Assembly: GCA_965208575.1 (NCBI GenBank)
Contig: CBDBOV010000006.1
Location: forward strand, 736,001-800,000
DNA from: Spirochaetia bacterium
GTDB lineage: Bacteria; Spirochaetota; Spirochaetia; SZUA-6; Bin103
DNA: 64,000 nucleotides
Direction: 5' to 3'
Shown here: piece after piece, positions 35,064 through 64,000 of the stretch
Position numbering within the stretch: position 1 is the first letter of the stretch
Layout: the number at the start of each line of letters is the position of its first letter
Program-made: the position numbers and the translations under genes
Notes under the pieces: generated by a model
The model's input: the letters and a program-made list of their open reading frames with translations, nothing else
Databases searched by the model: none
What the model was told of the DNA's origin: nothing

Positions 35064-36704
35064 TCAGCCGTCGGCCAGCTCGAACGCCGTCACGTTGCGC
35101 GTCCGGCGGCTGAGTTCCACTCCGATCAGGTGGATGGGCTCACCCCGCCCCCGGTACTTGTCCGCGTAGCCCCGCTCCCGCAACTGCGCCAGCGCCGACC
35201 CCGCCGCCGCCAGCTCGGCTACCTTGAACTCGAACAGGTACACGTGCCCGCCGGTCCTCACCGCCATGTCCAGGCGCCCGTGGCTGCTCGACTCCTCCAC
35301 CGCGATCTCGTACCCCAGCGCCGCGAAGTACGAATAGAAAACGCTCGCGTAGTACCCCTCGTACTGCGCGATATCGTTGTTTGTGTGCCATTCGTAGGGA
35401 ATGCTCGCGAAGAACGCGTGGAACAGCTCCTGCAGCCCCGCGCAGTCGTGCGTGGAAAGCAGCCGTTGCAGCCGCATGCTGTTCGCCGTCTGCTGCTCCA
35501 CGTCCTGCACCAAGTGGCGCAGCAGGTGCTCGTTCAGGCTCTGGCGCACCTCCCGGTTCGGGTAGCCCAACCGATACAGCACCTTGCCGCCCAGCTCCTC
35601 TTCCCCCGTTACCGTCAGGTAACCGGTCTGGAACAGCAACGCCTGCGTGCCGATCTGGCCCACGTCGAACCTCGACAGCAGTTCCATCGTTCCCACCATT
35701 CGGTCCAGCGACACCGACGCCACCCGCCGCTCGAACAGCAGGTCCACCAGAAACGCCGGCGTCCCGGTCTCGAACCAGTGCGCGGCAAACTCGCGGCTGT
35801 CGAACAGCAGCAGCACGTCGTACGGGTTGTACACCTTCTCCTCGCCGCGCCAGCGGTAGCCGTTGTACCACTCGCGGATCCGTTCCCGGTCCAGCCCGGC
35901 CAGTTCCGGCGCGAACACCGTGTCCAGATCCGCGTCCGTGTAGCCGCAGATTGACGAGTAGCGCCGATCCAACGTGAGATCTGTGAGATTGTTCAACTGC
36001 GAGAAGAGCGCCCCACCGGCGGCGCCTTCGGCCTCGCCGGTGGCCCATCCCGTCCTTCCGCCCAAGAAACTTCCACGGAAGTGTCTTGGGCGGTTTACCT
36101 TGGAGAACTTGCTGATGCCGGTGAGGAACGTGAACCGCACGTGGGCGTCCGAGTCCTTGATCACCCCGTACAGCCCGCGCAGGTAGTCGCGGTTGGCACG
36201 CGCCGCCTCGGGTTCCTCCAACGCGTCCAGGATCGGCTTGTCGTACTCGTCCACCAGCACCACCACCCGCTGCCCCGTCTGCCGATGCAGCGTGCGCAAC
36301 AGACGGCGCAAGCGCGGCGCCGCGCCGCCGTCGTGGGATGCAATGCCCGCCGCCTCCTCCAGGTCCTGCAACTGGAATGCCACGTCCTCGTGCAGCGTCG
36401 CGGGCTCGGTGAAGCTGCCGCTGCCGAAGCTCAGCCGCACCACCGGATGCCGCTCCGACCAATCGTGGCGGTCGTGGATGTAGAGCCCCGCGAACAACGC
36501 CTCGTTGCCCTCGAACAGCTCCTTCAGCGTGTCCAGAAACAAGCTCTTGCCGAACCGCCGGGGCCGCGACAGGAAGTAATGTGTGCCCCCGCGGAGCAAC
36601 CGCTCGATGAAGGCGGTCTTGTCCACGTAGTAGCAGTCCTGCTCCCGCAGCTTGCGGAACGTCTGTATCCCGATCGGCAGTCTGCGCCGCGCCACCGGTT
36701 TCAT
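35064..36704 (-). CDS. AAA-ATPase-like + PD-(D/E)XK nuclease protein
   Basis: LPIGIQTF, YVDKT, SRPRRFGKS, VLVDEYDKP, C-terminal GRLD...FEFK; carries a 28-aa in-frame insert. Confidence 0.88.
   Translation of the reverse strand: MKPVARRRLPIGIQTFRKLREQDCYYVDKTAFIERLLRGGTHYFLSRPRRFGKSLFLDTLKELFEGNEALFAGLYIHDRHDWSERHPVVRLSFGSGSFTEPATLHEDVAFQLQDLEEAAGIASHDGGAAPRLRRLLRTLHRQTGQRVVVLVDEYDKPILDALEEPEAARANRDYLRGLYGVIKDSDAHVRFTFLTGISKFSKVNRPRHFRGSFLGGRTGWATGEAEGAAGGALFSQLNNLTDLTLDRRYSSICGYTDADLDTVFAPELAGLDRERIREWYNGYRWRGEEKVYNPYDVLLLFDSREFAAHWFETGTPAFLVDLLFERRVASVSLDRMVGTMELLSRFDVGQIGTQALLFQTGYLTVTGEEELGGKVLYRLGYPNREVRQSLNEHLLRHLVQDVEQQTANSMRLQRLLSTHDCAGLQELFHAFFASIPYEWHTNNDIAQYEGYYASVFYSYFAALGYEIAVEESSSHGRLDMAVRTGGHVYLFEFKVAELAAAGSALAQLRERGYADKYRGRGEPIHLIGVELSRRTRNVTAFELADG
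36009..36092. repeat. 84-bp double-hairpin element inserted in frame
   Basis: CCACCGGCG...CGCCGGTGG and CCGCCCAAGA-AACTTCC...GGAAGT-G-TCTTGGGCGG; interrupts SKFSKVx|LFSxLNN. Confidence 0.75.
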
Positions 36705-36935
36705 CTTACCCCGTGGAGGTCGCGCCCTCTCCCGCCCGGTAGTGCGGGCGGCCCGTCGATCTCTTCCATAACCGTGCGTGGCTCCCGTCGCCCTGAATGA
36801 TAGCATCGCCGCCACCACCGGTACACCCGCGAGGCGCTGTCCGCGATGATGGGTGCCGTGGGTGTTCGGACCAGTCGTCCAAGCGGGTAACGGAGGCTTC
36901 TCTCCGGCGGTAGGTGCCGGTACGTTGGAAACAGG

Positions 36936-38399
36936 ATGAGTAGCCTCGACACCCTTCCCGCAACAGCTCACACGACAGCGGATACCACTGCGGCGGAGCC
37001 CAGCTTCAACGAGGGGCTGGCGCTGGCGGTGGACCGGGCGCTGCGCCACCTGGACCTGCCGCCAGGCCTGCCGGAGCAGATCAAGGCGTGCGACTCGGTG
37101 CTGCAGTTGCAGTTCCCGGTGCGGCTCGACGACGGCGTGCTGCACATCTTCCGCGGCTGGCGCGCCACGCACAGCTCGCACTCCCTGCCGGCCAAGGGCG
37201 GCATCCGCTACGCCACCTGCGTCGACCAGGACGAGGTGGAGGCGCTGGCCGCGCTGATGACCTACAAGTGCGCGCTGGTGGACGTGCCGTTCGGCGGCTC
37301 CAAGGGCGGCGTGCGGCTGGATCCCGGCCGGTACTCGGAGCGCGAGCTGGAGGCGATCACGCGCCGCTTCGCCCGCGAGCTGATCTCGCGCGGCTACCTG
37401 AGCCCCGGCGGCAACGTGCCGGCCCCCGACATGGGCACCGGCGCACGCGAGATGGGCTGGATCGCCGACGTGTACCGCACCATCCACCCGGAGGAGATCA
37501 ACGCGCTCGCGTGCGTGACCGGCAAGCCGGTCACCTCCGGGGGCATACCGGGCCGCACCGAGGCGACCGGGCGCGGCGTGCAGTTCGCGGTGCGCGAGTT
37601 GTTCCGCCGTCCGGAGGACCTGGCGCTGGCCGGCCTGGACGGCGGGCTGGAGGGCAAGCGGGTCTTGGTGCAGGGGCTCGGCAACGTCGGTTACCACCTG
37701 GCCCGCTACCTGTCCGAGGAGGACGGCGCGCTGGTGGTCGGCGTGATGACGCGCGAAGGCGCGGTGCTCGACGACGGCGGCATCGACGTTGCCTCGCTGC
37801 GCGCCCACCTGGACGAGTACGGCGGCGTCGCGGGGTTCCCGCGGGGGCGCACCGACGTGGATGCCGACGCGTTCCTGGCCACCTCCTGCGACCTGCTGAT
37901 CCCGGCGGCGGTCGAGGGCCAGATTCACGCCGGCAACGCGGCCCGCGTGCAGGCCCGGCTGGTGGTGGAGGCGGCCAACGGCCCGGTGACCTACCGCGGC
38001 GACGAGATTCTGCGCCGGCGCGGCATCCCGGTGCTGCCCGACCTGTTCGTGAACGCGGGCGGGGTGACCGTGTCCTACTTCGAGTGGATCAAGAACCTGT
38101 CGCACATCCGCTTCGGGCGCATGGACCGCCGCCTGGACGAGGGCCGTGGCGCGCGCATCGTCGGTGCGCTGGAGCAGATGACCGGGCGCCCGGCGGACGC
38201 GGCGCTGCGCGCCGAACTGGTCAGCGGCGCCGACGAGCTGACGCTGGTGCGCTCAGGCCTGGACGACACCATGCGGCAGGCCTACGACGAGATCAGCGAC
38301 ACCTTCCGCCACGGCGACGGCATCGACGACTTCCGCACCGCCGCCTACGTGGTCGCACTCCGCAAGATCGCCAACACCTACTTCGACCTCGGCATCTAG
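36936..38399 (+). CDS. gdhA: Glutamate dehydrogenase (Glu/Leu/Phe/Val family)
   Basis: KGGIRY, MTYKCA, PFGGSKGG, VPAPDMGT, ATGRG, QGLGNVG, EAANGP, NAGGVTVSYFEW. Confidence 0.93.
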   Translation: MSSLDTLPATAHTTADTTAAEPSFNEGLALAVDRALRHLDLPPGLPEQIKACDSVLQLQFPVRLDDGVLHIFRGWRATHSSHSLPAKGGIRYATCVDQDEVEALAALMTYKCALVDVPFGGSKGGVRLDPGRYSERELEAITRRFARELISRGYLSPGGNVPAPDMGTGAREMGWIADVYRTIHPEEINALACVTGKPVTSGGIPGRTEATGRGVQFAVRELFRRPEDLALAGLDGGLEGKRVLVQGLGNVGYHLARYLSEEDGALVVGVMTREGAVLDDGGIDVASLRAHLDEYGGVAGFPRGRTDVDADAFLATSCDLLIPAAVEGQIHAGNAARVQARLVVEAANGPVTYRGDEILRRRGIPVLPDLFVNAGGVTVSYFEWIKNLSHIRFGRMDRRLDEGRGARIVGALEQMTGRPADAALRAELVSGADELTLVRSGLDDTMRQAYDEISDTFRHGDGIDDFRTAAYVVALRKIANTYFDLGI

Positions 38400-46562: not shown

Positions 46563-47786
46563 CTGAATCTGATCCCGCGACCCCTGTACACCGAGCGCAT
46601 CCTGCCGTTCATGAACAAGCCGCTCATCAAGGTGATTACGGGAGTCAGGCGAGCCGGCAAGAGCGCGCTCATTCAACTGCTGATCGACCACCTCACCGCG
46701 GGCGGCGTCCCGGCCGAGAACATTCTGAGCATCAACATGGAATCGCTGGAGTTCGAGGCGCTCGGCGACTACCGGAAACTCTACGACCATGTCCGCCGCC
46801 ACCTGCCGGACACCACGGAGTCCTACCTGTTCGTGGATGAGGTGCAAAACGTCGTCGGGTGGGAGCGGGCGATCGCGTCGGTTCTCGCCGATGGGTTGGC
46901 GGACGTCACGATCAGTGGGTCGAACGCGCGGCTACTGTCGTCGGATCTTGCCACCCGGCTCACGGGGCGGTACGTCGAGATTCCGGTGTATCCGTTGCTG
47001 TTCTCGGAGTTCATCCGATTCCAGGGAATAGAACCGAGCTCACCCGATGTTCGGGGGGCCTGGGACCGCTTCCTGCGCTATGGCGGGTTCCCGGGCATTC
47101 GCTACTTGAGCCTGGAGGATGAGCCGGTATTCGCCTACCTCAACTCGCTCTACCATACGATCGTGCTGAAGGACGTGGTCAATCGGCACCAAGTCAGAGA
47201 GCCGGCCCAGCTCGATGGCATTACGCGCTTTCTGTTCGACAACTGCGGCAACATCACCACGGCCAAGCGCATGACCGACTACATGAAGGCGCAGGGGCTG
47301 AGCGTATCCCTGTCGCGCGTGCAGAACTACCTCTCCTACCTGGAGGAGGCGTTCCTGGTATTCCGCTGCCGGCGGTACGACCTGAAGGGCATGCGCCACC
47401 TGGAACTGTACGACAAGTTCTACATGACCGACATCGGCATCCGGCACGGCCTGGTTGGCTACCGGGACAACGACCTTGCCGGGTTGCTCGAGAACGTGGT
47501 CTACCTGGAACTGCGCGCCCGTGGATACACGGTCAGCGTCGGCAAGTTCCGGGACTACGAGATCGACTTCGTCGCCGAGCGGCGGACCGAACGACTCTAC
47601 GTCCAGGTGTGCTACTCGCTGTCGAGTGAGGAGACGGTCGAGCGGGAGTACCGGTCACTCAGGCGGGTGCCCGATAACCATCCCAAGCTGGTCCTGTCAC
47701 TCGATACCGTGCAGCCGGCCAACCGTGGCGGCATTCGATGGCAGAATCTTGTCGATTTCCTGCTCAAGAACCCTCCGGTCGGGTGA
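46563..47786 (+). CDS. AAA_14 ATPase with DUF4143-type C-terminus
   Basis: ITGVRRAGKS, FVDEVQ, SGSN, YGGFPG, KFY..DIG, LENVVYLEL, EIDF; first ATG at 46611, probable CTG start at 46563. Confidence 0.85.
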   Translation: MNLIPRPLYTERILPFMNKPLIKVITGVRRAGKSALIQLLIDHLTAGGVPAENILSINMESLEFEALGDYRKLYDHVRRHLPDTTESYLFVDEVQNVVGWERAIASVLADGLADVTISGSNARLLSSDLATRLTGRYVEIPVYPLLFSEFIRFQGIEPSSPDVRGAWDRFLRYGGFPGIRYLSLEDEPVFAYLNSLYHTIVLKDVVNRHQVREPAQLDGITRFLFDNCGNITTAKRMTDYMKAQGLSVSLSRVQNYLSYLEEAFLVFRCRRYDLKGMRHLELYDKFYMTDIGIRHGLVGYRDNDLAGLLENVVYLELRARGYTVSVGKFRDYEIDFVAERRTERLYVQVCYSLSSEETVEREYRSLRRVPDNHPKLVLSLDTVQPANRGGIRWQNLVDFLLKNPPVG

Positions 47787-49969: not shown

Positions 49970-51763
49970 TCAGCGCCGCACCTCGTCGCAGAACACCAGC
50001 TCCCAGCCGTGGAACACCACGACCAGGCCGATGAAGGTCACCCCCGGAAACTGCCGCGCCAGCCGCTCATCCGCCAGGTAGCGCTCGAGCTGCGCCGTCG
50101 CCTCTCCGGCCGCCGCCGCCACGCCGGCGTCGTCCGCCGGCCCGCTGCGCTGCAAGCGCCCACGCCGCTTGAGGTACTTGAGCTCGATCAGGTAGCCGCG
50201 CTGCAGGTGCGGATAGCGCGCCACCAGCGGCTCGAGCGCGATGTCCGCGTGTCCCTTTCCCAGTTCCGCCTCCGACCGGAACACGTAGTGGTCGGTCACG
50301 CTCAGATAGGCGGCGAGGAATCCTAAAGCCCCGGTACGGGGCTCAAGCACCTTCTCGCCACTGATGTAGTCGCGTATTCCGGTCTGCCGGGAGATCGCCT
50401 CGCTCAGGAACTCCAGTACCGGTCGCCACCCGCCCTCGTTGGCCATCCGCATCATCAACTGCTCAAACCGGAACAGGTTTACTGAAAACACCCCCACGTC
50501 GCGGTAGGCGTCGCGCAGAAACCCGTACATCAGCCGCTTCACGGTCTGGTTCGGGATCGCCAGCCGGGGCACCCGCTCCACCACGTCGCGGATGCTCAGC
50601 AGTCCGAAGTAGTGCAGCAGGGAGAAGAAGTTCTCCTGCTTGGTGAGGTCCTTCAGCGGAAAGCCGGGCTGGATGCGGGTGTCCACCTGCTCCTCGCCGA
50701 TCAAGTCCCTCAGCAGGTCGAAGTTGCCGTTGAGCTGCCGCCCGGTCACCAGCAGGTGACGCAGCTTGCCGTAGTCGATGCGCACGTTGGTGTCGATCAG
50801 TTCATCCGGCACCTCTCGGTTGGGAATCGAGTTGTCCAGGTAATACAGCACCATGTCGGTGTTGTAGAGATCGGTCTCGGCTGCCTTGGCGAAGCGGTAG
50901 CCGTTGTACCATTCGCCCATGATGCCCATGGCGGTCTCGACCTTCTGGTTGAACACGCCCAGGCCGCGGTACGTGTCGACCAGGTGCCGGACCTCCGCCT
51001 CGGTGAAGCCGACCATCTCGTTGAAGTCCGGGTGCAGGCTGATGTTCTTGCCGATGTTGAAGCCGCTGGTGACGTCGTCCATCGTGATCGGCGATACGCC
51101 GGTGATGAACAGCCGTTCCAGCCCGCCGCCGCTGCGCCCCGCCCCGGACTTGAGGGTGGCGAAGAAGTTGCGATAGAAGCCGCCGCCGTGGGTGAACGAG
51201 TGGTACGCCTCGGCGCCGTGGTACGCCAGCACGGTGTTGGCGAAGTTGTCGTACTCGTCGATGATCACGTACAGCGGGATGTCGTGGTCGCCGGCGTACC
51301 GGAACAACACCCCGAGCTTGGCGCTAATGGAGGGCCGCGTGAGGATGCGCTGCACCGCCGCGTCGGGAAACAGGTCGGGATGCCGCTCCAGCGTCCCCTG
51401 CAGCTCCGTGTGGCAGTAGATCTCGAACTCCCGCTCCAGGGTTTCCAGCTTGTCGTTGACGGTTGAAAAGTCGAAGCGCAGGGTGACGTAGCGGCTCTGT
51501 TCCCCGGTCGGGTCTCCGCCGATGTCGGTGCCGGCGAAGGTGGCGTCGAAGCCTTCCGCCCAGAAGCGGTCGTAGTAGTTCTCCAAGATCGACGCCCAGA
51601 GGGACTTGCCGAAGCGGCGCGGGCGGATCAGGAAGGCGTAGCGCTCCTCCTCGAGGCGGCGCAGGAAGCGGGTCTTGTCGACGTACAGCCACCGGTTCAG
51701 GCGGATGCGCCTGAAGTCGGCCTCGCCGTAGGGAATGCGCGGGTGCGTGGGTGGCGTTCTCAC
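49970..51763 (-). CDS. AAA-ATPase-like + PD-(D/E)XK nuclease protein
   Basis: IPYG..DF, YVDKT, RPRRFGKSL, IIDEYDNFAN, FITGVSP, GHADI, IELKY. Confidence 0.88.
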   Translation of the reverse strand: MRTPPTHPRIPYGEADFRRIRLNRWLYVDKTRFLRRLEEERYAFLIRPRRFGKSLWASILENYYDRFWAEGFDATFAGTDIGGDPTGEQSRYVTLRFDFSTVNDKLETLEREFEIYCHTELQGTLERHPDLFPDAAVQRILTRPSISAKLGVLFRYAGDHDIPLYVIIDEYDNFANTVLAYHGAEAYHSFTHGGGFYRNFFATLKSGAGRSGGGLERLFITGVSPITMDDVTSGFNIGKNISLHPDFNEMVGFTEAEVRHLVDTYRGLGVFNQKVETAMGIMGEWYNGYRFAKAAETDLYNTDMVLYYLDNSIPNREVPDELIDTNVRIDYGKLRHLLVTGRQLNGNFDLLRDLIGEEQVDTRIQPGFPLKDLTKQENFFSLLHYFGLLSIRDVVERVPRLAIPNQTVKRLMYGFLRDAYRDVGVFSVNLFRFEQLMMRMANEGGWRPVLEFLSEAISRQTGIRDYISGEKVLEPRTGALGFLAAYLSVTDHYVFRSEAELGKGHADIALEPLVARYPHLQRGYLIELKYLKRRGRLQRSGPADDAGVAAAAGEATAQLERYLADERLARQFPGVTFIGLVVVFHGWELVFCDEVRR

Positions 51764-51916: not shown

Positions 51917-52822
51917 TCACACGGCATCGGCGCCGAGACGACCGCCGCCACCGCGCAGCCGCGGGTCGAGCAGGTCTCTGAGGGCGTCACCCAACATGTT
52001 GAAACTGTACACCACGGTCGTCAGGCACAGCCCCGGCCAGAGCGCCAGCCAGGGGGCCTGCTCCATGTACTTGCGCCCTTCCCGGCTGAGCATGCCGCCC
52101 CAGTCAGGAATGCCCGGTGGCAGACCGTAGCCGAGGAAGCCCAGAGCAGCCAACGACATGATCACCCCGCCGATGTTGATCGAGAACACAATGATGACCG
52201 GTGCCATGATGTTGGGCAGGACATGGCGGCTCAGGATCTTGCTGGTGGGGGTGCCCACGGCCTGGGCCGCCAGAAAATAGTCGTTCTCCTTGATGCCGAT
52301 CACCGCGCTTCTCATGACCCTCGAGCCGCTGATGCCTCCGGCGATCCCCAGGACCACGATGATCTGGGGGAGACCCCTTCCCACAATGGACATGATGGTG
52401 AGCAAGAGCAACAATCCCGGAAACGCCATCCAGGCATCGACAAAGCGCTGCACCGCCAGATCCAATCTGCCCCCGAGAAATCCGGAAGTGCCGCCGACCA
52501 GGACAGCGACCACGATATTCAGCGCAGTCGCGGCCACACCGACGAGGACGGAGATACGAGCCCCGAAGATCAGCCGGCTGAGCAGGTCTCGTCCGGCCTG
52601 GTCGGTACCCAGAAGATACTGCGACGACGGGCCTGCAAGCCTGTCGACCAGGTGAATCTCCTTGTGGGAATAAGGCGCCAGCACGTCGGCAAAGATCGCC
52701 ACCAAGAGAAATATCACTATGATGATCCCGGACAACGTACCGAGCGGCTTCTCCTTGACAAGCCTGATCCCGAAATCAGCCAGCCGGGAACGTCTCCTTG
52801 GATCACCCATGCTCGCCGTCAT
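51917..52822 (-). CDS. Peptide ABC permease, DppC type (cassette C)
   Basis: LLGTDQAGRD, DLLDPRLRGGG; last codons clipped relative to paralogs (ADAV* versus ADAARSV*). Confidence 0.92.
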   Translation of the reverse strand: MTASMGDPRRRSRLADFGIRLVKEKPLGTLSGIIIVIFLLVAIFADVLAPYSHKEIHLVDRLAGPSSQYLLGTDQAGRDLLSRLIFGARISVLVGVAATALNIVVAVLVGGTSGFLGGRLDLAVQRFVDAWMAFPGLLLLLTIMSIVGRGLPQIIVVLGIAGGISGSRVMRSAVIGIKENDYFLAAQAVGTPTSKILSRHVLPNIMAPVIIVFSINIGGVIMSLAALGFLGYGLPPGIPDWGGMLSREGRKYMEQAPWLALWPGLCLTTVVYSFNMLGDALRDLLDPRLRGGGGRLGADAV

Positions 52823-52825
52823 CCG

Positions 52826-53836
52826 TTATTGATACCGAACCCTGGGGTCCAAGAACGCATAAATCACGTCGATCATGAGATTGATCGCCAAAACCGCGGT
52901 AGCAAAAATCAGGTTTATCGCGGAGACGACCGGGTAGTCTCTGCCATCGAGCGCATCCACAAACATACGGCCTATCCCCGGCAGAGCGAATATTTGCTCC
53001 AGGATAACGGAGCCACCTACCAGCAGGGGGAGCTGCAGACCGACCAGCGTAACGACCGGGATGAGGGTATTCTTGATGGCGTGCCGCATGACCACTACCC
53101 GCTCCCTGAGGCCCTTCGACCAGGCCGTCCTGATATAGTCCTGCCGGAGCACCTCCAGCATCATGGTGCGCGTCATCCGCATCGTGCTGGCAGCCAGGGC
53201 GGTGCCCAGAATCAGGGCCGGAATCAGGAACATCCCGAGATTCCCCAGCGGGTCTTCGGCGAACGGAATCAGCTCTATCGGCGGCGACCAGCCCCACCAG
53301 ATTGCCGGGTAGAGCATGACCATGACTCCGAGCCAGAAGTTCGGCGTTGCCAAGCCGATGATGGCGGCGGTGCGGCCTACGTAATCGGCGACGGTGTCCT
53401 GGCGGATCGCCGAGTAGACGCCGACGGGCAGGGCTATGACCAGCCCAATTACAATTGACAGAGCACCAAGCTCGATGGTTACCGGCAATCTCCCGATGAT
53501 GATCTCCTCTATCGGAAAAGGAGCGCCAAACAGTGATTCGCCAAAGGTGCCCTGGAGGAGACCTCTGAAGTGGGACTCACCGGTAATCCAGTCAGGGGTC
53601 GGCAGCACTCCTAGCCAGCGTCCATACTGCACGTAGACCGGCACGTCCAGTCCCAGCATACGCTCGAGCGTGTCGCGGTCCAGGTCGGCACCCGCGGCAT
53701 GCCATGCTTCCATCTCAGCCACCATTACGTCTATTACATCGCCGGGGATGAAGCGGACCGCGAGAAAGACGATGATGGTCAATATGAACAGGGTGGGGAT
53801 GATGAGCAACAACCGCCTGATGAGATAGCTTCTCAT
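52826..53836 (-). CDS. Peptide ABC permease, DppB type (cassette C)
   Basis: EVLRQDYIRTAWSKGL. Confidence 0.92.
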   Translation of the reverse strand: MRSYLIRRLLLIIPTLFILTIIVFLAVRFIPGDVIDVMVAEMEAWHAAGADLDRDTLERMLGLDVPVYVQYGRWLGVLPTPDWITGESHFRGLLQGTFGESLFGAPFPIEEIIIGRLPVTIELGALSIVIGLVIALPVGVYSAIRQDTVADYVGRTAAIIGLATPNFWLGVMVMLYPAIWWGWSPPIELIPFAEDPLGNLGMFLIPALILGTALAASTMRMTRTMMLEVLRQDYIRTAWSKGLRERVVVMRHAIKNTLIPVVTLVGLQLPLLVGGSVILEQIFALPGIGRMFVDALDGRDYPVVSAINLIFATAVLAINLMIDVIYAFLDPRVRYQ

Positions 53837-53912
53837 GGTGTTGGTACCCCAAGTATGGGAGCTGGAAAGCGCGCTCGCAAGCGACCGCCACCCAGCTCCG
53901 CAAGAGTTACTG

Positions 53913-55712
53913 CTAATTCCCCATCGTTGCTTGCTTCAGCTCACTATCAATCCAGAGGCGGGCCAAGAAGGTATTACGTTCACCACGTCCCATACCTGCT
54001 TCACCGAAATAACCCTCGACCCACGGCTGGCTCACGTGGAACTTGGGGGCGTTGGATTTGACCAGACCCCAGTGCTCCCTTATCGTGATCTCATCGACCT
54101 GTCGATGCAAGCTCTTCCACTCCTCCAGGGTGGTGGCAGCTTGCATGGCGGCAAACAGGGCGTCAGTTACCGGGTCGTTCCCCTTCGCCTTGTTCTTTTG
54201 GTGTTGTTGAGTCAGGTAACCGGCGCCGCCGAGTATCCCATATGCCCAATCCCCTAACGCCCACTCGTGCGTGTCCGCGCCATGTATAGCGGAAATCTCA
54301 GCGGCAGTATGGGCAAAAAGCTCGCTGTCAACTCCAATGGCTTCGAAGTACCCCATGACGATTTCACCATACGTCGGATCGTACCGGTCGAAATGGGAGA
54401 TCTTGAGCTTGAATCGATAGCCATCGGCGCCGCGCGGATATCCAGCCGCATCAAGCAACGCTTCCGCGTCATCCGGGTGATACTCATACTCATGCTTGAC
54501 CTCGTCGGGCCACTCTTCATATGGCCAGGAAAACTCCCCTGGGCCATCTTGCTGTACTAACCCATACGGTGCTGGATCTCCCCAACCCTTAAGGAAGGTG
54601 GCGGAAATCGTCTCGCGGTCCACTGCCATCTGCAGTGCCTTGCGCACATCGACGTCGCTAGTGGGTGACAAAGCCCAGTTAAAAAAGTATGCGCCCGCTA
54701 TCCAGCTATAAACGGGCCACACCTCGATTTCAGGGTTGGTCCGCTGGAGGCTCTCCAAATCGTCGATATTGTATATGACAGCGTCGCCGGTGTTACTCAG
54801 CATATCAATCTTTCCCGTGCGCATTGCCGCCAGACGTGCTGACATGTCCGGTATCAGCAAGGACCTCAATTCGTCAATATAGGGTAGGCGGTTTTCCGGG
54901 AATTTTTCGTCGTAACCCCAGTAGTCAGGATTCTTCTCCCAGGTTGCCGAGCTGCCCTCCACGAAATCAGTCAGTCGAAAGGGCCCGGTGCCGACCACGT
55001 TCCGCCAATCCTTGGCGTCGCCGTATTTCTCGATTTGCTCAGGGGCGTGCGCAACCCAGTAGTTGTTGAGCATTTTCCCCAGCCCATCGGGGTGAGACTG
55101 CTTCAGCTTGATCTCAACCGTCCATTGGTCGGTGGCCGTTACCGATTCGAACTGTAGACCGAAGAAGATAACACCCGCACTGGGGCTAGGTCCGTCTTCC
55201 GTGAAATCGCCCAGACCCAAATAGCGGTGATAGTTCCATTCGACGTCATGGGCATCGAACTCCCGACCGTTCACCGGCGCCTTGTCATGCCAGTGAACGC
55301 CCTGGCGGATGTTCCAGATGAACGTTGTGTCGTCGGGCATTGACCAGCTTTCAGCCAGAGCCCCTGTAGTCATCTCCGGGGTCACAATGCGGGAGTCTCT
55401 ACCGCCCCATATATCCCTGGTGAGTCCCCAGTCGGCGAAGGACAGCCCCTCATTGACGCCACTGATCACGTGAGCCGCCCAGCCAGGTTTCCACCAGTTG
55501 TCAATACCGGGAGGAAAGACAACAACGCCCTGCGTGATTGTCCCGCCATACTGTGGCGCGGTCCACGTCATGCCGGTGGCGGGGTCGAACACCGTTTCCT
55601 TCTCGGTAGCCGCCGCCGGCTCCTCTACTGCGGCAGCGGCCCAGAGGCCGGTGGCGGTCAGGACCATGACCAACGCAACCGCGAAGGTCCTGGTGATTGT
55701 TACCATATTCAT
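53913..55712 (-). CDS. Family 5 substrate-binding protein (cassette C)
   Basis: PQYGG, WHDKAPVNGR, GTGPF, ARLWID. Confidence 0.92.
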   Translation of the reverse strand: MNMVTITRTFAVALVMVLTATGLWAAAAVEEPAAATEKETVFDPATGMTWTAPQYGGTITQGVVVFPPGIDNWWKPGWAAHVISGVNEGLSFADWGLTRDIWGGRDSRIVTPEMTTGALAESWSMPDDTTFIWNIRQGVHWHDKAPVNGREFDAHDVEWNYHRYLGLGDFTEDGPSPSAGVIFFGLQFESVTATDQWTVEIKLKQSHPDGLGKMLNNYWVAHAPEQIEKYGDAKDWRNVVGTGPFRLTDFVEGSSATWEKNPDYWGYDEKFPENRLPYIDELRSLLIPDMSARLAAMRTGKIDMLSNTGDAVIYNIDDLESLQRTNPEIEVWPVYSWIAGAYFFNWALSPTSDVDVRKALQMAVDRETISATFLKGWGDPAPYGLVQQDGPGEFSWPYEEWPDEVKHEYEYHPDDAEALLDAAGYPRGADGYRFKLKISHFDRYDPTYGEIVMGYFEAIGVDSELFAHTAAEISAIHGADTHEWALGDWAYGILGGAGYLTQQHQKNKAKGNDPVTDALFAAMQAATTLEEWKSLHRQVDEITIREHWGLVKSNAPKFHVSQPWVEGYFGEAGMGRGERNTFLARLWIDSELKQATMGN

Positions 55713-55800
55713 ACGTAACTCCGTATGTTGATTTCTGAGAGTATTGCGTAGCGGCTTGCCGCTCCCCGGCTACTCTCGCGCCCGCAACGCGGGCGGCCGG
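55713..55800 (-). promoter_or_regulatory. Conserved structured 5' leader of SBP gene, copy C (proximal half)
   Basis: Homologous to 34547-34640 and 45937-46025. Confidence 0.6.
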
Positions 55801-56016
55801 CCAGTCCGGGGGGACGCGCCGGCTGCCTCGGTGCCAACCGGCCACGGCGCTGACTGTCATTTCGGCACGATGTGCCCATTTATCGATTGGCCCCAGTGCA
55901 ACGAATGCTCACACGCGCGGGCAAACGTGTCAACCACCCACCCGTCGCGGCGGCCTGCCGCTGGAGGTTGTCGAGGTTTTTGACCAGTGAGCCGCGCCTC
56001 TGCTACTGTGGTTGGC

Positions 56017-56116
56017 ATGGCGGCGTGGAGATTCGCGCATCCAGTGCTACAACGGCCCGGCGGATGAAGACCATTGGATTCGCTTCGAGAACTTCTGCAT
56101 CAAGCGACTAGCGTAA
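56017..56116 (+). pseudogene. Skeleton of the ConA-like gene (47852-48418)
   Basis: ATG jumps to 47958, then to about 48339; 100 of 567 bp remain. Confidence 0.88.
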
Positions 56117-56165
56117 CAATGTTGACCGTCGGCTCCCGCAACCTGCCGGAGTGCCCTGAACTGTC

Positions 56166-56628
56166 GTGAGCGAAGACCTTCACTACGCACCATTGCCGGG
56201 GTCGCGGCGCTCATCAGGGCGCAGCGGCTGTCGCCGGTGGAGCTGACCAGGAGCGTACTGGCCCGCATCGACCGGCTCGACAGCGATCTGCACAGCTACG
56301 CCACGGTGATGGAGGAGCAGGCGCTGTCGAGCACATCGATGTCCTTGCCTGCCCAGCCATGCCCGATCTCCCCTTCCCGGTCACACCGGAAGCGCTGCGC
56401 TCCTCGCCGCCGGTCGTCGACGAGGGCGTCTTTCGGCTGCAGCGGTTCACGGTGCCGTTCGACTACAACGGCGCGCCGACGCTCACGCTGCCGTGCGGAC
56501 TGAGCAGCGAGGGGTTGCCCCTGGCGCTGCAACTGGCCGGCAAACCGCTCGCCGAGCCGCTGCTGTGCCGGCTCGGCGCCGCCTACGAAGCCGCCACCGA
56601 GTGGCACGACCTGCATCCCGGCCGGTAG
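56166..56628 (+). pseudogene. Skeleton of the amidase (48468-49883)
   Basis: 5' end joined at 56326/56327 to the 3' end; about 950 bp including the catalytic motifs are missing; 1-bp deletion near the start. Confidence 0.9.
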
Positions 56629-56655
56629 AAGTGATCGACGTACTTGCCATCGCCA

Positions 56656-56850
56656 TTAATCACCTCGTTGGGTCATGTTCCCCGGCATGCGCCCTCGCTC
56701 AACCGACGCGGCGCCGCTGCCGGCGAGACGACCGCCGCCACCCCGCAGCCGGTCGATCATGGTCATGTCCATGAAGTGGAACGGCGCCGGCGACCAGGCA
56801 CAGCTCCCTGATCAGCCGCCGCAGCAGGTCGCGCAGGAACGACTGTGGAG
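56656..56850 (-). pseudogene. Skeleton of a DppC-type permease
   Basis: Fragments QSFLRDLLRRLIRE | LCLVA | APFHFMDMTMIDRL | RGGGGRL...* in native order. Confidence 0.75.
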
Positions 56851-56913
56851 AGGTGGGTCCTGTCTTGACGTACGAGCCGCACGCCATGATGCTGGACGGT
56901 GCCGAGGGGACCC

Positions 56914-58119
56914 GTGGCAGATACTATCCTGAGCCGGCTGGTATTCCAGCGCTTCCGCAGCCTTGCCAAGGAAGAGGTGAAGTTTGATAACCCGACCTTT
57001 CTGATCGGTCAGAACGGCTGTGGCAAGAGCAACTTCAGCGATGCAATTGCCTTCCTTGCGGAGGCGATGGCGTCTCCACTGCAAGCTGTCCTTGAGCATC
57101 GCGGGGGATTTGCTGCGGTCAGTCATCGAGGTTCGGCGAGAGGCCGCTCGAACATGGGGCTCGCCGTCGAGCTTCATGATCCGGGTGCCGACATGAGCGA
57201 GGCTCGGTATGGCATAGAGTTGCGCGCGTCAACCGGTAGTGGGTTCCAGGTCGTACGCGAGCAGTGCGTGGTGACGCGACTGAATGGGTCCATTGCCTCG
57301 TTTGACCGCAGACCGGTCAACGGCTCCGTGGGCTGGAAGAGCAGTGTAAAATCCCTGGACCCCATTGTGGAACCGAATGCGTTGGCGCTTCCTCTGGTCG
57401 GTGGCGACGCGCGCTTTCGGCCGGTTTTCCGTCTTCTATCGGATATGCGGGTGTGTCGGATCGAACCGGCGGCCGTTCGCGCTTTGCAGGACCCGGACGG
57501 CGGCGTACGGCTGCAAGCCGACGGTAGCAACGCCGCCAGCGTGCTCCGGGAGATCCAACGACAATCCGCGACGGATTGGAAACGAATATGCGAACTTCTC
57601 CAATGTGTCGTCCCCGGAACCGTCGGCGTCCAGCTCAAGAGGCACGGCAACAAGCTGACCTTGGCGTTTAGTCAAGAGTGGGGAAAGTCGGCTCCGGTGA
57701 AGTTCGAAGCATTCAACATGTCAGACGGCACGCTTCGTGTGCTGGGCATCCTCGCAGCAATCTTCCAACGGCCGGCTCCCTCCCTTATCGTAATTGAAGA
57801 ACCGGAAGCTACCGTGCATCCGGGCGCCATAGGGACGATTCTCGACGTATTGCGGCACGCGGGACGCTTCATGCAGGTCGTGGTGACGACGCACAGTCCC
57901 GATGTTCTCGATGCCCAGTGGATTGAGGATCGACACCTCCGCATCGCGAGTTGGGAGAGAGGCATTACCCGGGTCAGTACTGTCTCGCCTTCCGTTAGAG
58001 CGGCCCTTCGCGAGCACCTGATGGGTGCAGGTGAGTTGCTTCGTTCGAACGCCATGGCGGCGGCAAAAGAGTCGGATTCCGACAAGAGACGGTTTGAGTT
58101 GTTCGTCAAGGCCATGTGA
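56914..58119 (+). CDS. ABC-type ATPase (AAA_21/AAA_15; RloA/AbiEii-like)
   Basis: LIGQNGCGKSN, MSDGTLR, IEEPEATVHP, TTHSP. Confidence 0.88.
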   Translation: MADTILSRLVFQRFRSLAKEEVKFDNPTFLIGQNGCGKSNFSDAIAFLAEAMASPLQAVLEHRGGFAAVSHRGSARGRSNMGLAVELHDPGADMSEARYGIELRASTGSGFQVVREQCVVTRLNGSIASFDRRPVNGSVGWKSSVKSLDPIVEPNALALPLVGGDARFRPVFRLLSDMRVCRIEPAAVRALQDPDGGVRLQADGSNAASVLREIQRQSATDWKRICELLQCVVPGTVGVQLKRHGNKLTLAFSQEWGKSAPVKFEAFNMSDGTLRVLGILAAIFQRPAPSLIVIEEPEATVHPGAIGTILDVLRHAGRFMQVVVTTHSPDVLDAQWIEDRHLRIASWERGITRVSTVSPSVRAALREHLMGAGELLRSNAMAAAKESDSDKRRFELFVKAM

Positions 58120-58120
58120 G

Positions 58121-58620
58121 ATGCGAATCCAGCCGATCGTGGAGGGGCATGGAGATGTGGCGGCTCTGCCGGTATTGTTGCGCCGTCTGATCAAGGAAGC
58201 CCAAACCTGGAGCGTCGATGTCGGGCGACCGATACGAGTGCCGCGGGGGAAGATCGTGCAGCAGGCTGAAGTGGAGCGTGCGGTCCGACTGGCGCTTCTT
58301 CAACCGGAGTGCGGCGCTGTTCTCATCCTCTTCGACGGAGACAGAGACTGCCCGGCGCGATTGGGGCCGTCCGTACAGACGTGGGCGGCAGCACGAGCGG
58401 GCAACGTGCCGTGCAGTGTCGTTATCGCCCATCGGGAGTACGAGGCGTGGTTTCTGGCTGCAATAGAGTCGCTACGCGGCTATCGCGGTGTCCGGGACGA
58501 TGCGGAAACACATCCGAATCCGGAAGGCCCTCTTTGTGCGAAGGGACAGATGGAAGCACGAATGCACGCGGACGCAAGCTATCTCGAACGTATTGACCAG
58601 CCGGCGCTCAGCGCCCGGGC
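58121..58620 (+). pseudogene. DUF4276 (TOPRIM-like) protein, 3'-truncated
   Basis: IVEGHGD, FDGDRDCP, REYEAWFLA, DQPALSA, then runs into an antisense dppC remnant (frame stays open to 59023). Confidence 0.75.
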
Positions 58621-58795
58621 TCAGTGCGACCGTTCCAGCTTCTGCAGCGCCTTCCGGGCGCGCTCGGCGGCGCGGGCACCTACGCCGCCGGCCACCGAGC
58701 CACCGCCGCCACGCAGCCGCGGGTCGAGCCGGCGCAGCAGGTCGCGCCGAAACGACTGCCTCTTCGCCCCCTTCGCCGGTGGCGCCTGTGGCGCG
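58621..58795 (-). pseudogene. Skeleton of a DppC-type permease (in-frame N-C fusion)
   Basis: KRQSFRRDLLRRL|DPRLRGGGGSVAGG...ARKALQKLERSH*, matching both termini of the 3228-4229 protein. Confidence 0.78.
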
Positions 58796-59034
58796 AGTTC
58801 CAGGTCACCAGGAAGTCGCATCTGTGAAAGGATGCCAGTGCCAAGTGCAGCGCATCACCACCCGGATCGGCGGGCATCACCTTGTGCCGGATGTACGTCT
58901 GCACGATCTCGCCGATGGCCGGCTCAACGGGCACCAGCGGCAGGTCATGAACGAGGACCTGCCGCTGCGCACTGCGCTCCGGTATATCGCCAACCAGTTC
59001 ATCCAGTACGGCCGCGCTGGTGACCAGTTCTCGT
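58796..59034 (-). pseudogene. Internal fragment of a PIN-domain toxin
   Basis: ELVTSAAVLDEL...DALHLALASFHRCDFLVTWN. Confidence 0.75.
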
Positions 59035-59445
59035 ATCCCGCACCGCATCGCCAAACATGTTCAGGCAGTAAACGGTGAGAGTCAGAGCGAGACCAGGCCA
59101 CAGAGCCAGCCATGGGGCAATTTCCATGAACTGACGCCCTTCCCGCTGAGCATGCCACCCCAGCTCGGAACACTCGGCGGCAGACCGAATCCGAGAAAGC
59201 TCAAGGACGCCTCGCTGATGATCACTCCACCGATGTTGATGGTGAATATGACGATTACGACCGGCATGATATTGGGCAGGACGTGTCGGATGAATGTTCT
59301 CCATTTTGAGGAGCCGACCGACTCCGCCGCATCAAAATACGCATTCTCCTTTATGTCGATAACGGCTCCCGCACGCGGTACCCAGTGGCTTCGTCCGCCA
59401 CATCCTGGTAAGGAAATCAGCGAAGTTGTTGCGGTCTCTATTCAT
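59035..59445 (-). pseudogene. DppC-type permease pseudogene (cassette D)
   Basis: MNRD...KPLGTACG jumps to GAVIDIKEN near 59370; frameshift near 59145; ends at GDAVRD. Confidence 0.88.
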
Positions 59446-60442
59446 AGCGGACCCTGGGGTCCAAGTATGGATAAACCAGGTCAATCGCCAGATTGATCCC
59501 GATGACCGCGGTGGCGAACAATAGGTTGATTCCGGAAACCACTGGGTAGTCCCTCGCATTGAGGGCAAGCACGAAGACACGACCTATCCCCGGCAGGTTG
59601 AAGATGTTCTCCATGATAACGGAGCCGCCTACCAGGATAGGCATCTGCAGGCCGATCAGCGTAACCACCGGGATGAGGGCATTCTTGACGGCGTGCCTGA
59701 TAACAACTGCCCTCTCCTTGAGTCCTTTTGACCAGGCGGTCCTGATATAGTCTTGCCTGAGCACCTCCAGCATCATGGTGCGCGTCATCCGCATTGTGGC
59801 TGCAGCCATGCCCGTCCCCAGAATCAGGCTGGGAATGATGAACACCCCCAGATTCTCCAGCGGCCCTTCGGTGAAACGAAACCACTCCATCGGTGGTGAC
59901 CAGCCCCACCAGACTACCGGGTAGACCATGACCATGGTTCCGAGCCAGAAGTTAGGCGCTGCCAGGCCGATGATGGCAACGGAGCGCCCCGCGTAGTCGG
60001 CCGCCGTATCCTGGCGAATCGCAGCGTAGATGCCGACTGGCAGCGCGATCACCAGCCCAATCACGATTGCCAGGAAGCCAAGCTCGATGGTTACCGGCAA
60101 TCTACCGACTATCTTCCTCGCTACCGGCAAACGGCCGCTTACCAGCGAGCGCCCGAGGCTGCCCTGAAGGAGACCCGTGAAATGAGACTCACCGGTACGC
60201 CAGTCAGGGGTCGGCAACACTCCTATCCAGCGTCCATACTGCACGTGGACGGGCACGTCCAGTCCCAGCATACGCTCGAGAGGTTCACGGTCCCTGCCGC
60301 CCGCTCTGTACACCGCCGCTTCAGACTCCATTACGTCGATGACATCGCCGGGGATGAAGCGCACCGAGAGGAAGACCAGGATGCTCAATATAAACAAGGT
60401 GGGGATTATCAGCAATAACCGCCTGATGATGTAGGCTCTCAT
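59438..60442 (-). CDS. Peptide ABC permease, DppB type (cassette D), intact
   Basis: Full length, EVLRQDYIRTAWSKGL. Confidence 0.9.
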   Translation of the reverse strand: MRAYIIRRLLLIIPTLFILSILVFLSVRFIPGDVIDVMESEAAVYRAGGRDREPLERMLGLDVPVHVQYGRWIGVLPTPDWRTGESHFTGLLQGSLGRSLVSGRLPVARKIVGRLPVTIELGFLAIVIGLVIALPVGIYAAIRQDTAADYAGRSVAIIGLAAPNFWLGTMVMVYPVVWWGWSPPMEWFRFTEGPLENLGVFIIPSLILGTGMAAATMRMTRTMMLEVLRQDYIRTAWSKGLKERAVVIRHAVKNALIPVVTLIGLQMPILVGGSVIMENIFNLPGIGRVFVLALNARDYPVVSGINLLFATAVIGINLAIDLVYPYLDPRVRYE

Positions 60443-62100: not shown

Positions 62101-62838
62101 TTAAACCGATCTGGCGGCATCGGCGCCGAGACGACCGCCGCCACCGCGCAGCCGCGGGTCGAGCAGGTCTCTGAGGGCGTCACCCAACATGTTGAAACTG
62201 TACACCACGGTCGTCAGGCACAGCCCCGGCCAGAGCGCCAGCCAGGGGGCCTGCTCCATGTACTTGCGCCCTTCCCGGCTGAGCATGCCGCCCCAGTCAG
62301 GAATGCCCGGTGGCAGACCGTAGCCGAGGAAGCCCAGAGCAGCCAACGACATGATCACCCCACCGATGTTGATCGAGAACACAATGATGACCGGTGCCAT
62401 GATGTTGGGCAGGACATGGCGGCTCAGGATCTTGCTGGTGGGGGTGCCCACGGCCTGGGCCGCCAGAAAATAGTCGTTCTCCTTGATACCGATCACCGCG
62501 CTTCTCATGACCCTCGAGCCGCTGATGCCTCCGGCGATCCCCAGGACCACGATGATCTGGGGGAGACCCCTTCCCACAATGGACATGATGGTGAGCAAGA
62601 GCAGCAATCCCGGAAACGCCATCCAGGCATCGACAAAGCGCTGCACCGCCAGATCCAATCTACCCCCAAGGAATCCGGAAGTGCCGCCGACCAGGACAGC
62701 GACGACGATATTCAGCGCAGTCGCGGCCACACCGACGAGGACGGAGATACGAGCCCCGAAGATCAGCCGGCTGAGCAAGTCTCGTCCCGCCTGGTCGGTA
62801 CCCAGAAGATACTGCGACGACGGACCTGCAAGCCTGTC
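62101..62838 (-). pseudogene. DppC-type permease lacking its 5' end (cassette E, copy of C)
   Basis: About ten substitutions versus 51920-52645; 488-bp deletion at 62838/62839. Confidence 0.9.
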
Positions 62839-63369
62839 TATAGTCCTGCCGGAGCACCTCCAGCATCATGGTGCGCGTCATCCGCATCGTGCTGGCAGCA
62901 AGGGCGGTGCCCAGAATCAGGGCCGGAATCAGAAACATCCCGAGATTCCCCAGCGGGTCTTCGGCGAACGGAATCAGCTCTATCGGCGGCGACCAGCCCC
63001 ACCAGATTGCGGGGTAGAGCATGACCATGACTCCGAGCCAGAAGTTCGGCGTTGCCAAGCCGATGATGGCGGCGGTGCGCCCTACGTAATCGGCGACGGT
63101 GTCCTGGCGGATCGCCGAGTAGACGCCGACGGGCAGGGCTATGACCAGCCCGATTACGATTGCCAGGGCACCAAGCTCGATGGTTACCGGCAATCTCCCG
63201 ATGATGATCTCCTCTATCGGAAAAGGAGCGCCAAACAGTGATTCGCCAAAGGTGCCCTGGAGGAAACCTCTGAAGTGGGACTCACCGGTAATCCAGTCAG
63301 GGGTCGGCAACACTCCTAGCCAGCGTCCATACTGCACGTAGACCGGCACGTCCAGTCCCAGCATACGCT
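62839..63369 (-). pseudogene. Internal fragment of DppB-type permease (cassette E)
   Basis: Near-identical to 53134-53664; both ends deleted (180-bp deletion removes the start). Confidence 0.9.
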
Positions 63370-63437
63370 TACCCCAAGTATGGGAGCTGGGAAGCGCGCT
63401 CGCAAGCGCCCGCCACCCAGCTCCGCAAGAGTTACTG

Positions 63438-64000
63438 CTAATTCCCCATCGTTGCTTGCTTCAGCTCACTATCAATCCAGAGGCGGGCCAGGTGGGTATT
63501 ACGTTCGCCGTTTCCCATCCCTGCTTCACCGAAATATCCCTGCACCCATGGCTGGCTCACGGAGAACCAGGGGGAGCTGGATTTAACGAGGGCCCAGTGC
63601 TCCCTTACCGTGATCTCATCGGCCTGCCTGATAAGACTCTTGAACTCCTCAAGGTCGGTGGTCTCGATGGCGGCAAGATGCAGGGCGTCGATACGCGGGT
63701 CCGTCGCCTTGTTGTGGCTTCTCCCATCAAAGCTCTGGCTTATCCATGTCAGGTTGGTTCCGCTGCTGCCAAACCAGCCATAATAACTGGCCACAAACTC
63801 ATACTCGTGCGTGTCCGCATTCAACAAAGCCCCTGACTCAGCGCTAGTCTGTATAAACAGCTCGCTGTCAACGCCAATGGCATCCAGGTACCCCATGACG
63901 AGTTCCGGATAGGTCGGCTCGTACCTGCTGAACTGGGCAATCTCGACCTTGAATCTATAGCCGTCGTCGCCGCGCGGATATCCGGCCGCATCAAGGAGTT
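63438..64000 (-). CDS. Family 5 substrate-binding protein (cassette E), C-terminal part; continues beyond the window
   Basis: AAGYPRGDDGYRF...REHW...SQPWVQGYFGE...ARLWIDSELKQATMGN*. Confidence 0.88.
   Translation of the reverse strand, partial: LLDAAGYPRGDDGYRFKVEIAQFSRYEPTYPELVMGYLDAIGVDSELFIQTSAESGALLNADTHEYEFVASYYGWFGSSGTNLTWISQSFDGRSHNKATDPRIDALHLAAIETTDLEEFKSLIRQADEITVREHWALVKSSSPWFSVSQPWVQGYFGEAGMGNGERNTHLARLWIDSELKQATMGN

Follow-up and report, generated by a model that had tools for sequence, protein, structure and literature searches.

How do two neighbouring transport cassettes come to share nearly identical permease DNA when the solute-binding protein (SBP) genes directly beside it are strongly diverged? 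This question is raised by cassettes C and E, all of whose genes lie on the minus strand of a 64,000-nt window (G000:C6:736001-800000; positions below are those of the window unless a contig or locus is named) of the source genome, G000. The two cassettes were compared with sequences from relatives of the same genus, G001, G003, G005 and G006. The pair is very probably a recombination mosaic, in which homogenisation of the permeases, or a recent duplication, was combined with replacement of the SBP allele.

Permease identity and SBP divergence

Cassette C (51917..55712) is intact and comprises, by Pfam, an SBP gene (53913-55712, 599 aa), dppB (52826-53836) and dppC (51917-52822). Cassette E has an intact SBP gene of 603 aa (63438-65249) that extends past the window end and is followed by 1.26 kb of permease DNA, versus 1.92 kb in C. 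Comparison by self-BLAST and MAFFT revealed a tract of 98-99% identity to C (E 62115-63490), made up of three collinear blocks with 22 substitutions. E 62115-62838 and C 51922-52645 are 98.6% identical, the 10 substitutions in 724 bp all being synonymous; E 62839-63369 and C 53134-53664 are 98.1% identical, with 8 of 10 substitutions synonymous; and E 63370-63490 differs from C 53845-53965 at 2 positions, both intergenic. Coding DNA holds 20 of the 22 substitutions, 18 of them synonymous. At the SBP 3' end, the cassettes agree in the final 17 residues (ARLWIDSELKQATMGN) and in all of the final 53 nt, stop codon included (E 63438..63490, C 53913-53965). A preliminary description of this DNA had reported about ten substitutions in roughly 720 bp of dppC with the protein unchanged, and near identity of the intergenic region and the last 17 or so SBP codons; both statements held on measurement. 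Of the permease genes that description named dppC only, and the tract also holds a remnant of dppB; losses of 488 and 180 bp in E relative to C were overlooked.

Beyond this tract the SBPs diverge. Over the whole protein, 433 of 596 residues are identical (72.7%, with 80.5% identity at the nucleotide level), and in the part of the E-type body that lies within the window (63491..64000) the count is 118 of 181 aligned residues (65.2%), with 5 gap columns. The figure of about 60% over 152 aa given in the preliminary description was close to the measured value, 93 of 147 residues (63.3%) from the start of the open reading frame used there, and the indel-rich stretch that it pointed out is real. 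Nucleotide identity falls to 47-66% in a hypervariable stretch at 63600..63850 (E residues about 468-547). Both proteins match Pfam SBP_bac_5 (E value 6e-57 for the C SBP and 4e-62 for the E SBP), which identifies them as family-5 solute-binding proteins.

Nei-Gojobori estimates placed the synonymous divergence (dS) between C and E at 0.06 for the permease remnants (nonsynonymous divergence, dN, 0.003) and at 0.36 for the SBP genes (dN 0.19; whole-gene dN/dS 0.53). Within the SBP, dS is patchy: it is ~0-0.1 in codons 16-60 and 106-165 and 0.3-0.9 elsewhere, reaches 0.5-1.6 in many windows, and rises to as much as 1.6 at codons 468-547, a value taken from an indel-rich stretch in which the alignment is unsafe. 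No 30-codon window of the SBP displayed a clear excess of dN at low dS between C and E, and the expectation under diversifying selection, a dN/dS above 1 with SBP dS as low as in the flanks, was not observed. The preliminary description had offered either a swap of the SBP body, anchored at the conserved ARLWID-coding end, or very strong diversifying selection, with high dS confined to the SBP as the mark of swapping. The difference in dS between SBP and permeases favours recombination and not selection, and a sharply bounded tract with such a jump in synonymous divergence is characteristic of gene conversion.

A maximum chi-square test on the site patterns of the C cassettes of G000 and G001 and the E cassette of G000 mapped the recombination breakpoint to E 63451..63491 (maximum chi-square 295, not equalled in any of 1000 permutations; Fisher p 2.7e-49), inside the conserved ARLWID-coding block where the preliminary description had expected it. 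In the SBP body, 334 sites join the two C sequences and 4 join C and E of G000. From the SBP 3' end through the permeases, 51 sites join C and E of G000 versus 10 that join the two C sequences and 12 for the remaining alternative.

The conserved block at the SBP 3' end is 41 nt long and encodes LARLWIDSELKQA. With up to 6 mismatches, this ARLWIDSELK block occurs at 18 sites in the genome, C and E included, and some of the SBPs that bear it are only about 45% identical to E. It is followed by the SBP-dppB intergenic region (63370..63437), which contains a GC-rich hairpin (GGAGCUGGG...CCCAGCUCC) with a predicted RNA fold of -37 kcal/mol (z -2.4; 3 of 200 shuffled sequences fold as well); the hairpin copy at the C locus of G006 has a longer stem with both arms altered. 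The ARLWID-coding block appears to be a recombination foothold exactly at the module boundary. A 10-bp leader repeat was sought upstream of E and C, and nothing but a 15-nt CGC run was found.

When the genome was searched in 150-bp segments, no near-identical donor was found for the SBP body of E or of C, the best matches being 91.6% over 107 nt (contig C3) and 91.2% over 136 nt; a recent intragenomic swap of the SBP is therefore not shown. The nearest paralog shifts along the SBP and, in the hypervariable part, is paralog H (contig C3) for E and paralog J (contig C5) for C. Recent conversion tracts inside the SBP were considered as a source of the patchy dS and rejected, since identical low-divergence tracts appear when the E-type SBP of G006 is compared with C. 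These tracts are thus old features of both types.

SBP types in related species

SBP matches were present in 10 of 10 same-genus genomes searched, with at least 62 matches in each of four. Background dS values for rpoB and recA identified G006 as the closest relative of G000 (0.08 and 0.13) and G001 as much further removed (0.43 and 0.53); for G006-G003 and G006-G005, rpoB dS was 0.60-0.69. The E-type SBP has an ortholog in G006 (92.9% nt, dS 0.17), and the dN/dS of 0.13-0.16 between the two indicates purifying selection. No E-type SBP was found in G001 (best match 74%), and no C-type SBP was found in the G006 assembly, where the best match to C is the E ortholog of G006 itself (71%). G001 carries a C-type cassette that is 97.0% identical to cassette C at the nucleotide level overall, one flank downstream of it being 92% identical to G000. 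Between G000 and G001, the C-type SBPs are 97-100% identical per 100-nt window (dS 0.015) and the cassette permeases 89-98% (dS 0.13-0.14). A 1.5-kb element beside the G001 cassette (G001:C1:4687636-4689159; L017 9637-11160) matches many places in G000, each at the same 84.4% identity, and probably represents an insertion sequence family.

Replacement of one SBP type by another was directly visible at the C locus. In G006 (contigs C22 and C92), both flanks of this locus are 93-99% identical to those of G000, and the SBP between them is only 79% identical and of a third type, with a dS of 0.05 to copies in G003 and G005. Close relatives therefore hold different alleles at one syntenic locus. 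Further, SBP alleles are far closer across species than housekeeping genes (0.015 versus 0.43-0.53 for the C type; 0.05 versus 0.60-0.69 for the third type). Collectively, these data indicate that SBP types circulate among species and can replace one another at a fixed locus. From the SBP leader to a neighbouring HEC-01 gene pair (described below), G000 and G006 hold unrelated DNA, about 1.0 kb at window 55798-56794 versus 2.1 kb at 2042-4160 of contig C22, so the replaced segment at the C locus reaches upstream of the SBP.

The trees of the two modules conflict. The permease tree has the form ((C_G000,E_G000) 100/99, C_G001) 100/100, and the paralogous permeases within G000 are closer to each other than to the G001 ortholog, as in concerted evolution. 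The SBP tree contains the groups (E_G000,E_G006), (C_G000,C_G001) and (C-locus_G006,G003,G005), each at 100/100, with the types in a polytomy. The C and E permeases coalesce at a dS of 0.06, which places their common ancestor at or after the split of G000 and G006 and well after the split from the G001 cassette (dS 0.13).

At the dppB start, the G006 contigs of the E-type SBP and of the C locus are identical over 55 bases and then break off at one shared nucleotide, and another G006 contig halts 100 nt inside the dppC end. Contigs that end at a shared base are the signature of a near-identical permease repeat in a short-read assembly. The cassette permeases themselves are absent from the G006 assembly, in which the best match is 85%.

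Permease decay and the probable mosaic

The E permeases are remnants: dppB lacks its start and its 3' end, and dppC its first 59 codons. At the first deletion junction (62838..62839), 488 bp of C (52646-53133) are absent; this loss takes the dppB 3' end and the first 59 codons of dppC, and leaves codon 235 of dppB joined to codon 60 of dppC in a shifted frame. All other paralogs have about 490-510 bp at this position. At the second junction (63369..63370), 180 bp of C (53665-53844) are absent, which costs dppB its start codon and 57 codons, along with 8 bp of upstream DNA. Both segments are present in C and in all other paralogs, and neither junction shows microhomology in the C/E alignment. 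The dppB remnant (62839..63369) corresponds to codons about 58-235 of C dppB and covers just positions 1-88 of the 184 of Pfam BPD_transp_1. The dppC remnant (62115..62838) corresponds to codons 60-301 of C dppC; it matches BPD_transp_1 only, without OppC_N, whose first helix is missing, and the open reading frame at 62101-62778 within it begins with a TTG start that arose by substitution. Two complete permease genes, encoding DppB with its N-terminal domain and DppC with OppC_N, are present in cassette C and not in cassette E, which in this assembly consists of an orphan but intact SBP gene plus permease remnants.

The G006 contig of the E-type SBP runs on into an intact dppB start, and the 180-bp deletion is thus specific to G000. 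Since the split of C and E, 9 coding changes have fallen on the E lineage, 2 of them nonsynonymous. So few nonsynonymous changes would be unlikely by chance (P about 0.003 for 2/9; 0.001 for 2/10), which indicates that the E permeases were under selection until shortly before the deletions.

The arrangement is not confined to C and E. Among 92 intact SBP-dppB-dppC triads of G000, three further neighbour pairs have a similar pattern, with permeases 98.3-98.6% identical (dS 0-0.06) and SBPs 81.5-87.3% identical (dS 0.29-0.46). The members of each pair lie 6-15 kb apart on one strand, and the highly identical stretch begins either at the dppB start or within the intergenic hairpin; one of the pairs is highly identical over about 400 nt of SBP leader as well.

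The identity pattern, the discontinuity in dS, the breakpoint, the conflict between the trees and the presence of different alleles at the syntenic C locus are direct observations, and a mosaic would account for them as follows. The tract that reaches from the stop of dppC through the final 17 codons of the SBP gene would share very recent ancestry with C, acquired within the G000 lineage either by gene conversion across the 10 kb that separate the two loci or because the unit was recently duplicated. The SBP bodies would be two older allele classes that were swapped as units, with the crossover inside the nucleotide-conserved block encoding ARLWIDSELKQA; G000 would share the E type with its closest relative, G006, by inheritance, its C type is nearly identical to that of the distant G001, and a third type stands at the C locus of G006. 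Two later deletions would then have wrecked the dppB and dppC of E and left the orphan SBP gene with its remnants. We infer RecA-type homologous recombination as the mechanism, and the direction of transfer likewise. Homologous recombination acting on modules is ordinary and well known; here it is unusually clear and repeated, in the setting of the extreme transporter expansion of a symbiont.

Several points weigh against this mosaic. G000 is a metagenome-assembled genome with an estimated contamination of 5.75%, and the background dS rests on just two gene fragments, of rpoB and recA. Both deletions are known from the assembly alone; the Logan unitigs were of insufficient length to reveal them, none of those listed bridging 62838/62839 or 63369/63370, and junction-spanning 30-mers had 0 matches in metagenome contigs. 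Lineage-specific changes in the tract are symmetric, with 10 on E and 12 on C, and the direction of the C/E exchange is therefore not readable from them. In G006, the contig of the E-type SBP is 2.65 kb long with repeats at both ends, and its locus may not be syntenic; only 50 nt of permease sequence are known for the E cassette of G006, and they lie within the 180-bp deletion of E. Finally, in the three further pairs the SBPs are each other's nearest paralogs in the genome, so that divergence in place together with permease conversion fits these pairs equally well as swapping.

Pure concerted evolution would extend this last point to C and E themselves: old duplicates would have diverged in place, conversion would have homogenised the permeases only, and selection for different ligands would have halted the tracts at the SBP, with no swap at all. 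Consistent with such a history, values are similar in four neighbour pairs, each with both members on one strand and separated by 6-15 kb, the SBPs are mutually closest paralogs in three of the four, and G006 seems to carry the permease repeat too. However, the SBPs at the syntenic C locus are of different types (79% nt) in genomes that stand at a background dS of only 0.08-0.13, and this allele difference weakens concerted evolution as a sole cause. Concerted evolution is also at odds with the dS of 0.015 between the C-type SBPs of G000 and G001 against a background of 0.43-0.53, with an SBP tree that gives a C/E sister grouping no support, and with a hypervariable part in which the closest sequence is paralog H for E but paralog J for C. 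We consider this explanation unlikely.

Still less probable is a recent duplication of the whole cassette followed by very strong diversifying selection on the SBP. Such selection could be read from the most divergent stretch, a loop that contains the position aligned to a ligand-contacting residue of DppA and in which dN/dS is about 0.9-1. The SBP dS is nevertheless six times the permease dS, and selection at the protein level cannot raise dS; on this ground diversifying selection alone was rejected. Further, dN/dS is 0.53 over the whole gene and 0.13-0.16 between orthologous E-type SBPs, and both SBP types occur in other species. It is likewise most improbable that the junction is an assembly artefact, with an E-type SBP misjoined to a C permease copy or a copy polished with C reads, although a 2-kb repeat in a metagenome-assembled genome and two deletions without microhomology and without independent confirmation would be compatible with it. 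The two copies differ at 22 positions. At 62662 and 62778, Logan unitigs of runs X17 and X18 have the letters specific to E, with a depth equal to that of the unique SBP part. Unitigs of these two runs and of the independent X1 start at 63459-63461, 31 letters before the first C/E difference (63491), where a genuine shared flank would place them. In the independent assembly of G006, the E-type SBP, the intergenic region and the dppB start are contiguous. Together, the unitigs and this assembly indicate that the junction near 63490 is real, and the misassembly that the preliminary description had named as a possible refutation was not borne out.

Transporter repertoire, ligands and known systems

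By tblastn, G000 contains 124 SBP loci, 172 dppB-like loci and 173 dppC-like loci, or about 170 permease pairs, versus just 28 matches to the ATPase domain oligo_HPY. No ABC ATPase gene (DppD/DppF) was found adjoining C or E by Pfam, and the gene beyond the cassette C permeases is an AAA-ATPase_like/PDDEXK_9 gene, not an ABC ATPase. Since no ATPase genes adjoin cassettes A, B, C or E and oligo_HPY is found only 28 times genome-wide, ATPases must be shared. The E SBP may now work with another permease pair, such as that of C.

C and E give a clear and dated picture of how a transporter repertoire of very large size could evolve module by module. The channel genes of neighbours would stay interchangeable, the SBP, which sets what is taken up, would be replaced by alleles circulating among sponge-symbiont species, and redundant channel copies would then decay and leave orphan binding proteins. 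Two warnings follow: such cassettes break short-read assemblies at module boundaries, and SBP and permease gene trees cannot be combined. Most of the sequencing runs in which this stretch is found are sponge metagenomes. SBPs with 67-73% identity to the E type also occur in metagenome-assembled genomes titled Candidatus Tectimicrobiota, 'bacterium' and Dehalococcoidia (L067, L068 and L107), one of which is a complete 3.4-Mb chromosome; these matches hint at cross-phylum sharing among sponge symbionts or, for the short contigs, at binning errors.

A more far-reaching proposal, which we put forward as a doubtful one, is that the SBP bodies of the genus are exchangeable specificity cartridges held between nucleotide-conserved anchors and drawn from a pool shared across species, perhaps across the phyla of the sponge microbiome, with neighbouring permease pairs kept interchangeable by conversion. 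On one side the anchor may be the leader and signal peptide, and on the other the ARLWIDSELK block of 41 nt together with the intergenic hairpin. If true, the cartridges would amount to an organised re-aiming of about 170 permease pairs, possibly aided by the multi-copy AAA-ATPase/PD-(D/E)XK genes next to cassettes.

Genes of that family lie in the window at 49970-51763 and 35064-38105, both on the minus strand. The genome holds 17 such loci with 61-100% aa identity, and 9 of the 17 (53%) are within 1 kb of a cassette gene, where random placement gave 19% on average; of 500 such placements, the best equalled the observed 53%. PADLOC returned no match for this gene.

Two other neighbours resemble candidate defence genes. 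An AAA_14/DUF4143 protein encoded at 46611-47786 on the plus strand matches the PADLOC candidate PDC-S01 (E value 6e-142). A gene pair at 56899-59023, also on the plus strand, matches the candidate defence system HEC-01 (HEC-01A, E value 7e-105; HEC-01B, 2e-58; Pfam AAA_21 and DUF4276), and the corresponding pair of G006 is 99% identical. It occupies the place expected for the rest of a broken cassette D, which has an intact dppB (59438-60442), only about 277 nt of dppC (59090-59366) and no SBP. Just past the window end, at 66173-70282 in window numbering, two tandem SBP genes that are 86% identical at the nucleotide level (L001 6173-8050 and 8426-10282, plus strand) precede one permease pair (L001 10380-12325), which is followed by a third SBP gene (L001 12440-14254); the group forms a multi-SBP cassette.

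The AlphaFold2 model of the E SBP, built on 24 sequences, has a mean predicted local distance difference test score (pLDDT) of 79.9, and the hypervariable stretch forms a loop in it, with pLDDT 54-71. Foldseek matched the model to the structures of DppA, GbpA and AppA (E values 1e-31 to 1e-29; template modelling scores 0.69-0.74 on the target), and phmmer matched the sequence to E. coli DppA and Haemophilus GbpA/HbpA (PDB 1dpp, 3m8u and 6ofq; E values 8e-25 to 1e-21). In E. coli DppA, Asp408 is described in a passage of PMC3295651 as a conserved contact to the dipeptide N terminus that binds the N-terminal amine. The residue aligned to Asp408 of 1dpp in the phmmer alignment falls in the hypervariable loop and is Ser495 in E and Gly496 in C, so that neither protein has the aspartate that binds the peptide amine. 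This replacement suggests that the ligands of the E- and C-type SBPs are probably other than ordinary peptides and probably differ between the two types.

The genes tufA and tufB exemplify concerted evolution of bacterial paralogs by gene conversion. Such evolution is also treated in PMC6053082 and PMC5485169. Like concerted paralogs, the C and E permeases are closer to each other within the genome than to the ortholog of another species, in a sharply bounded tract. Unlike them, only the permease module is homogenised while the adjoining SBP keeps or receives a different allele, and four neighbour pairs within a single, hugely expanded family share this arrangement. A literature search on gene conversion of SBP and permease genes returned general papers only; PMC2246101, which deals with mal operons transferred as a whole, is no close match to the present case.

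At the level of the protein, the E SBP shares its fold with the cluster-C proteins DppA of E. coli and GbpA/HbpA of Haemophilus. It differs from them in being only about 20% identical and roughly 90 residues longer, and in the Ser (E) or Gly (C) at the Asp408 position. A functional parallel is DppBCDF of Pseudomonas aeruginosa, a single permease that is served by the binding proteins DppA1-A5 according to PMC4206461 and PMC12728205. There, orphan SBPs lean on a shared permease and give it different specificities, and E seems to have reached this state. In contrast to the P. aeruginosa system, sharing is inferred for E, and the E SBP lost its own permease by recent deletion.

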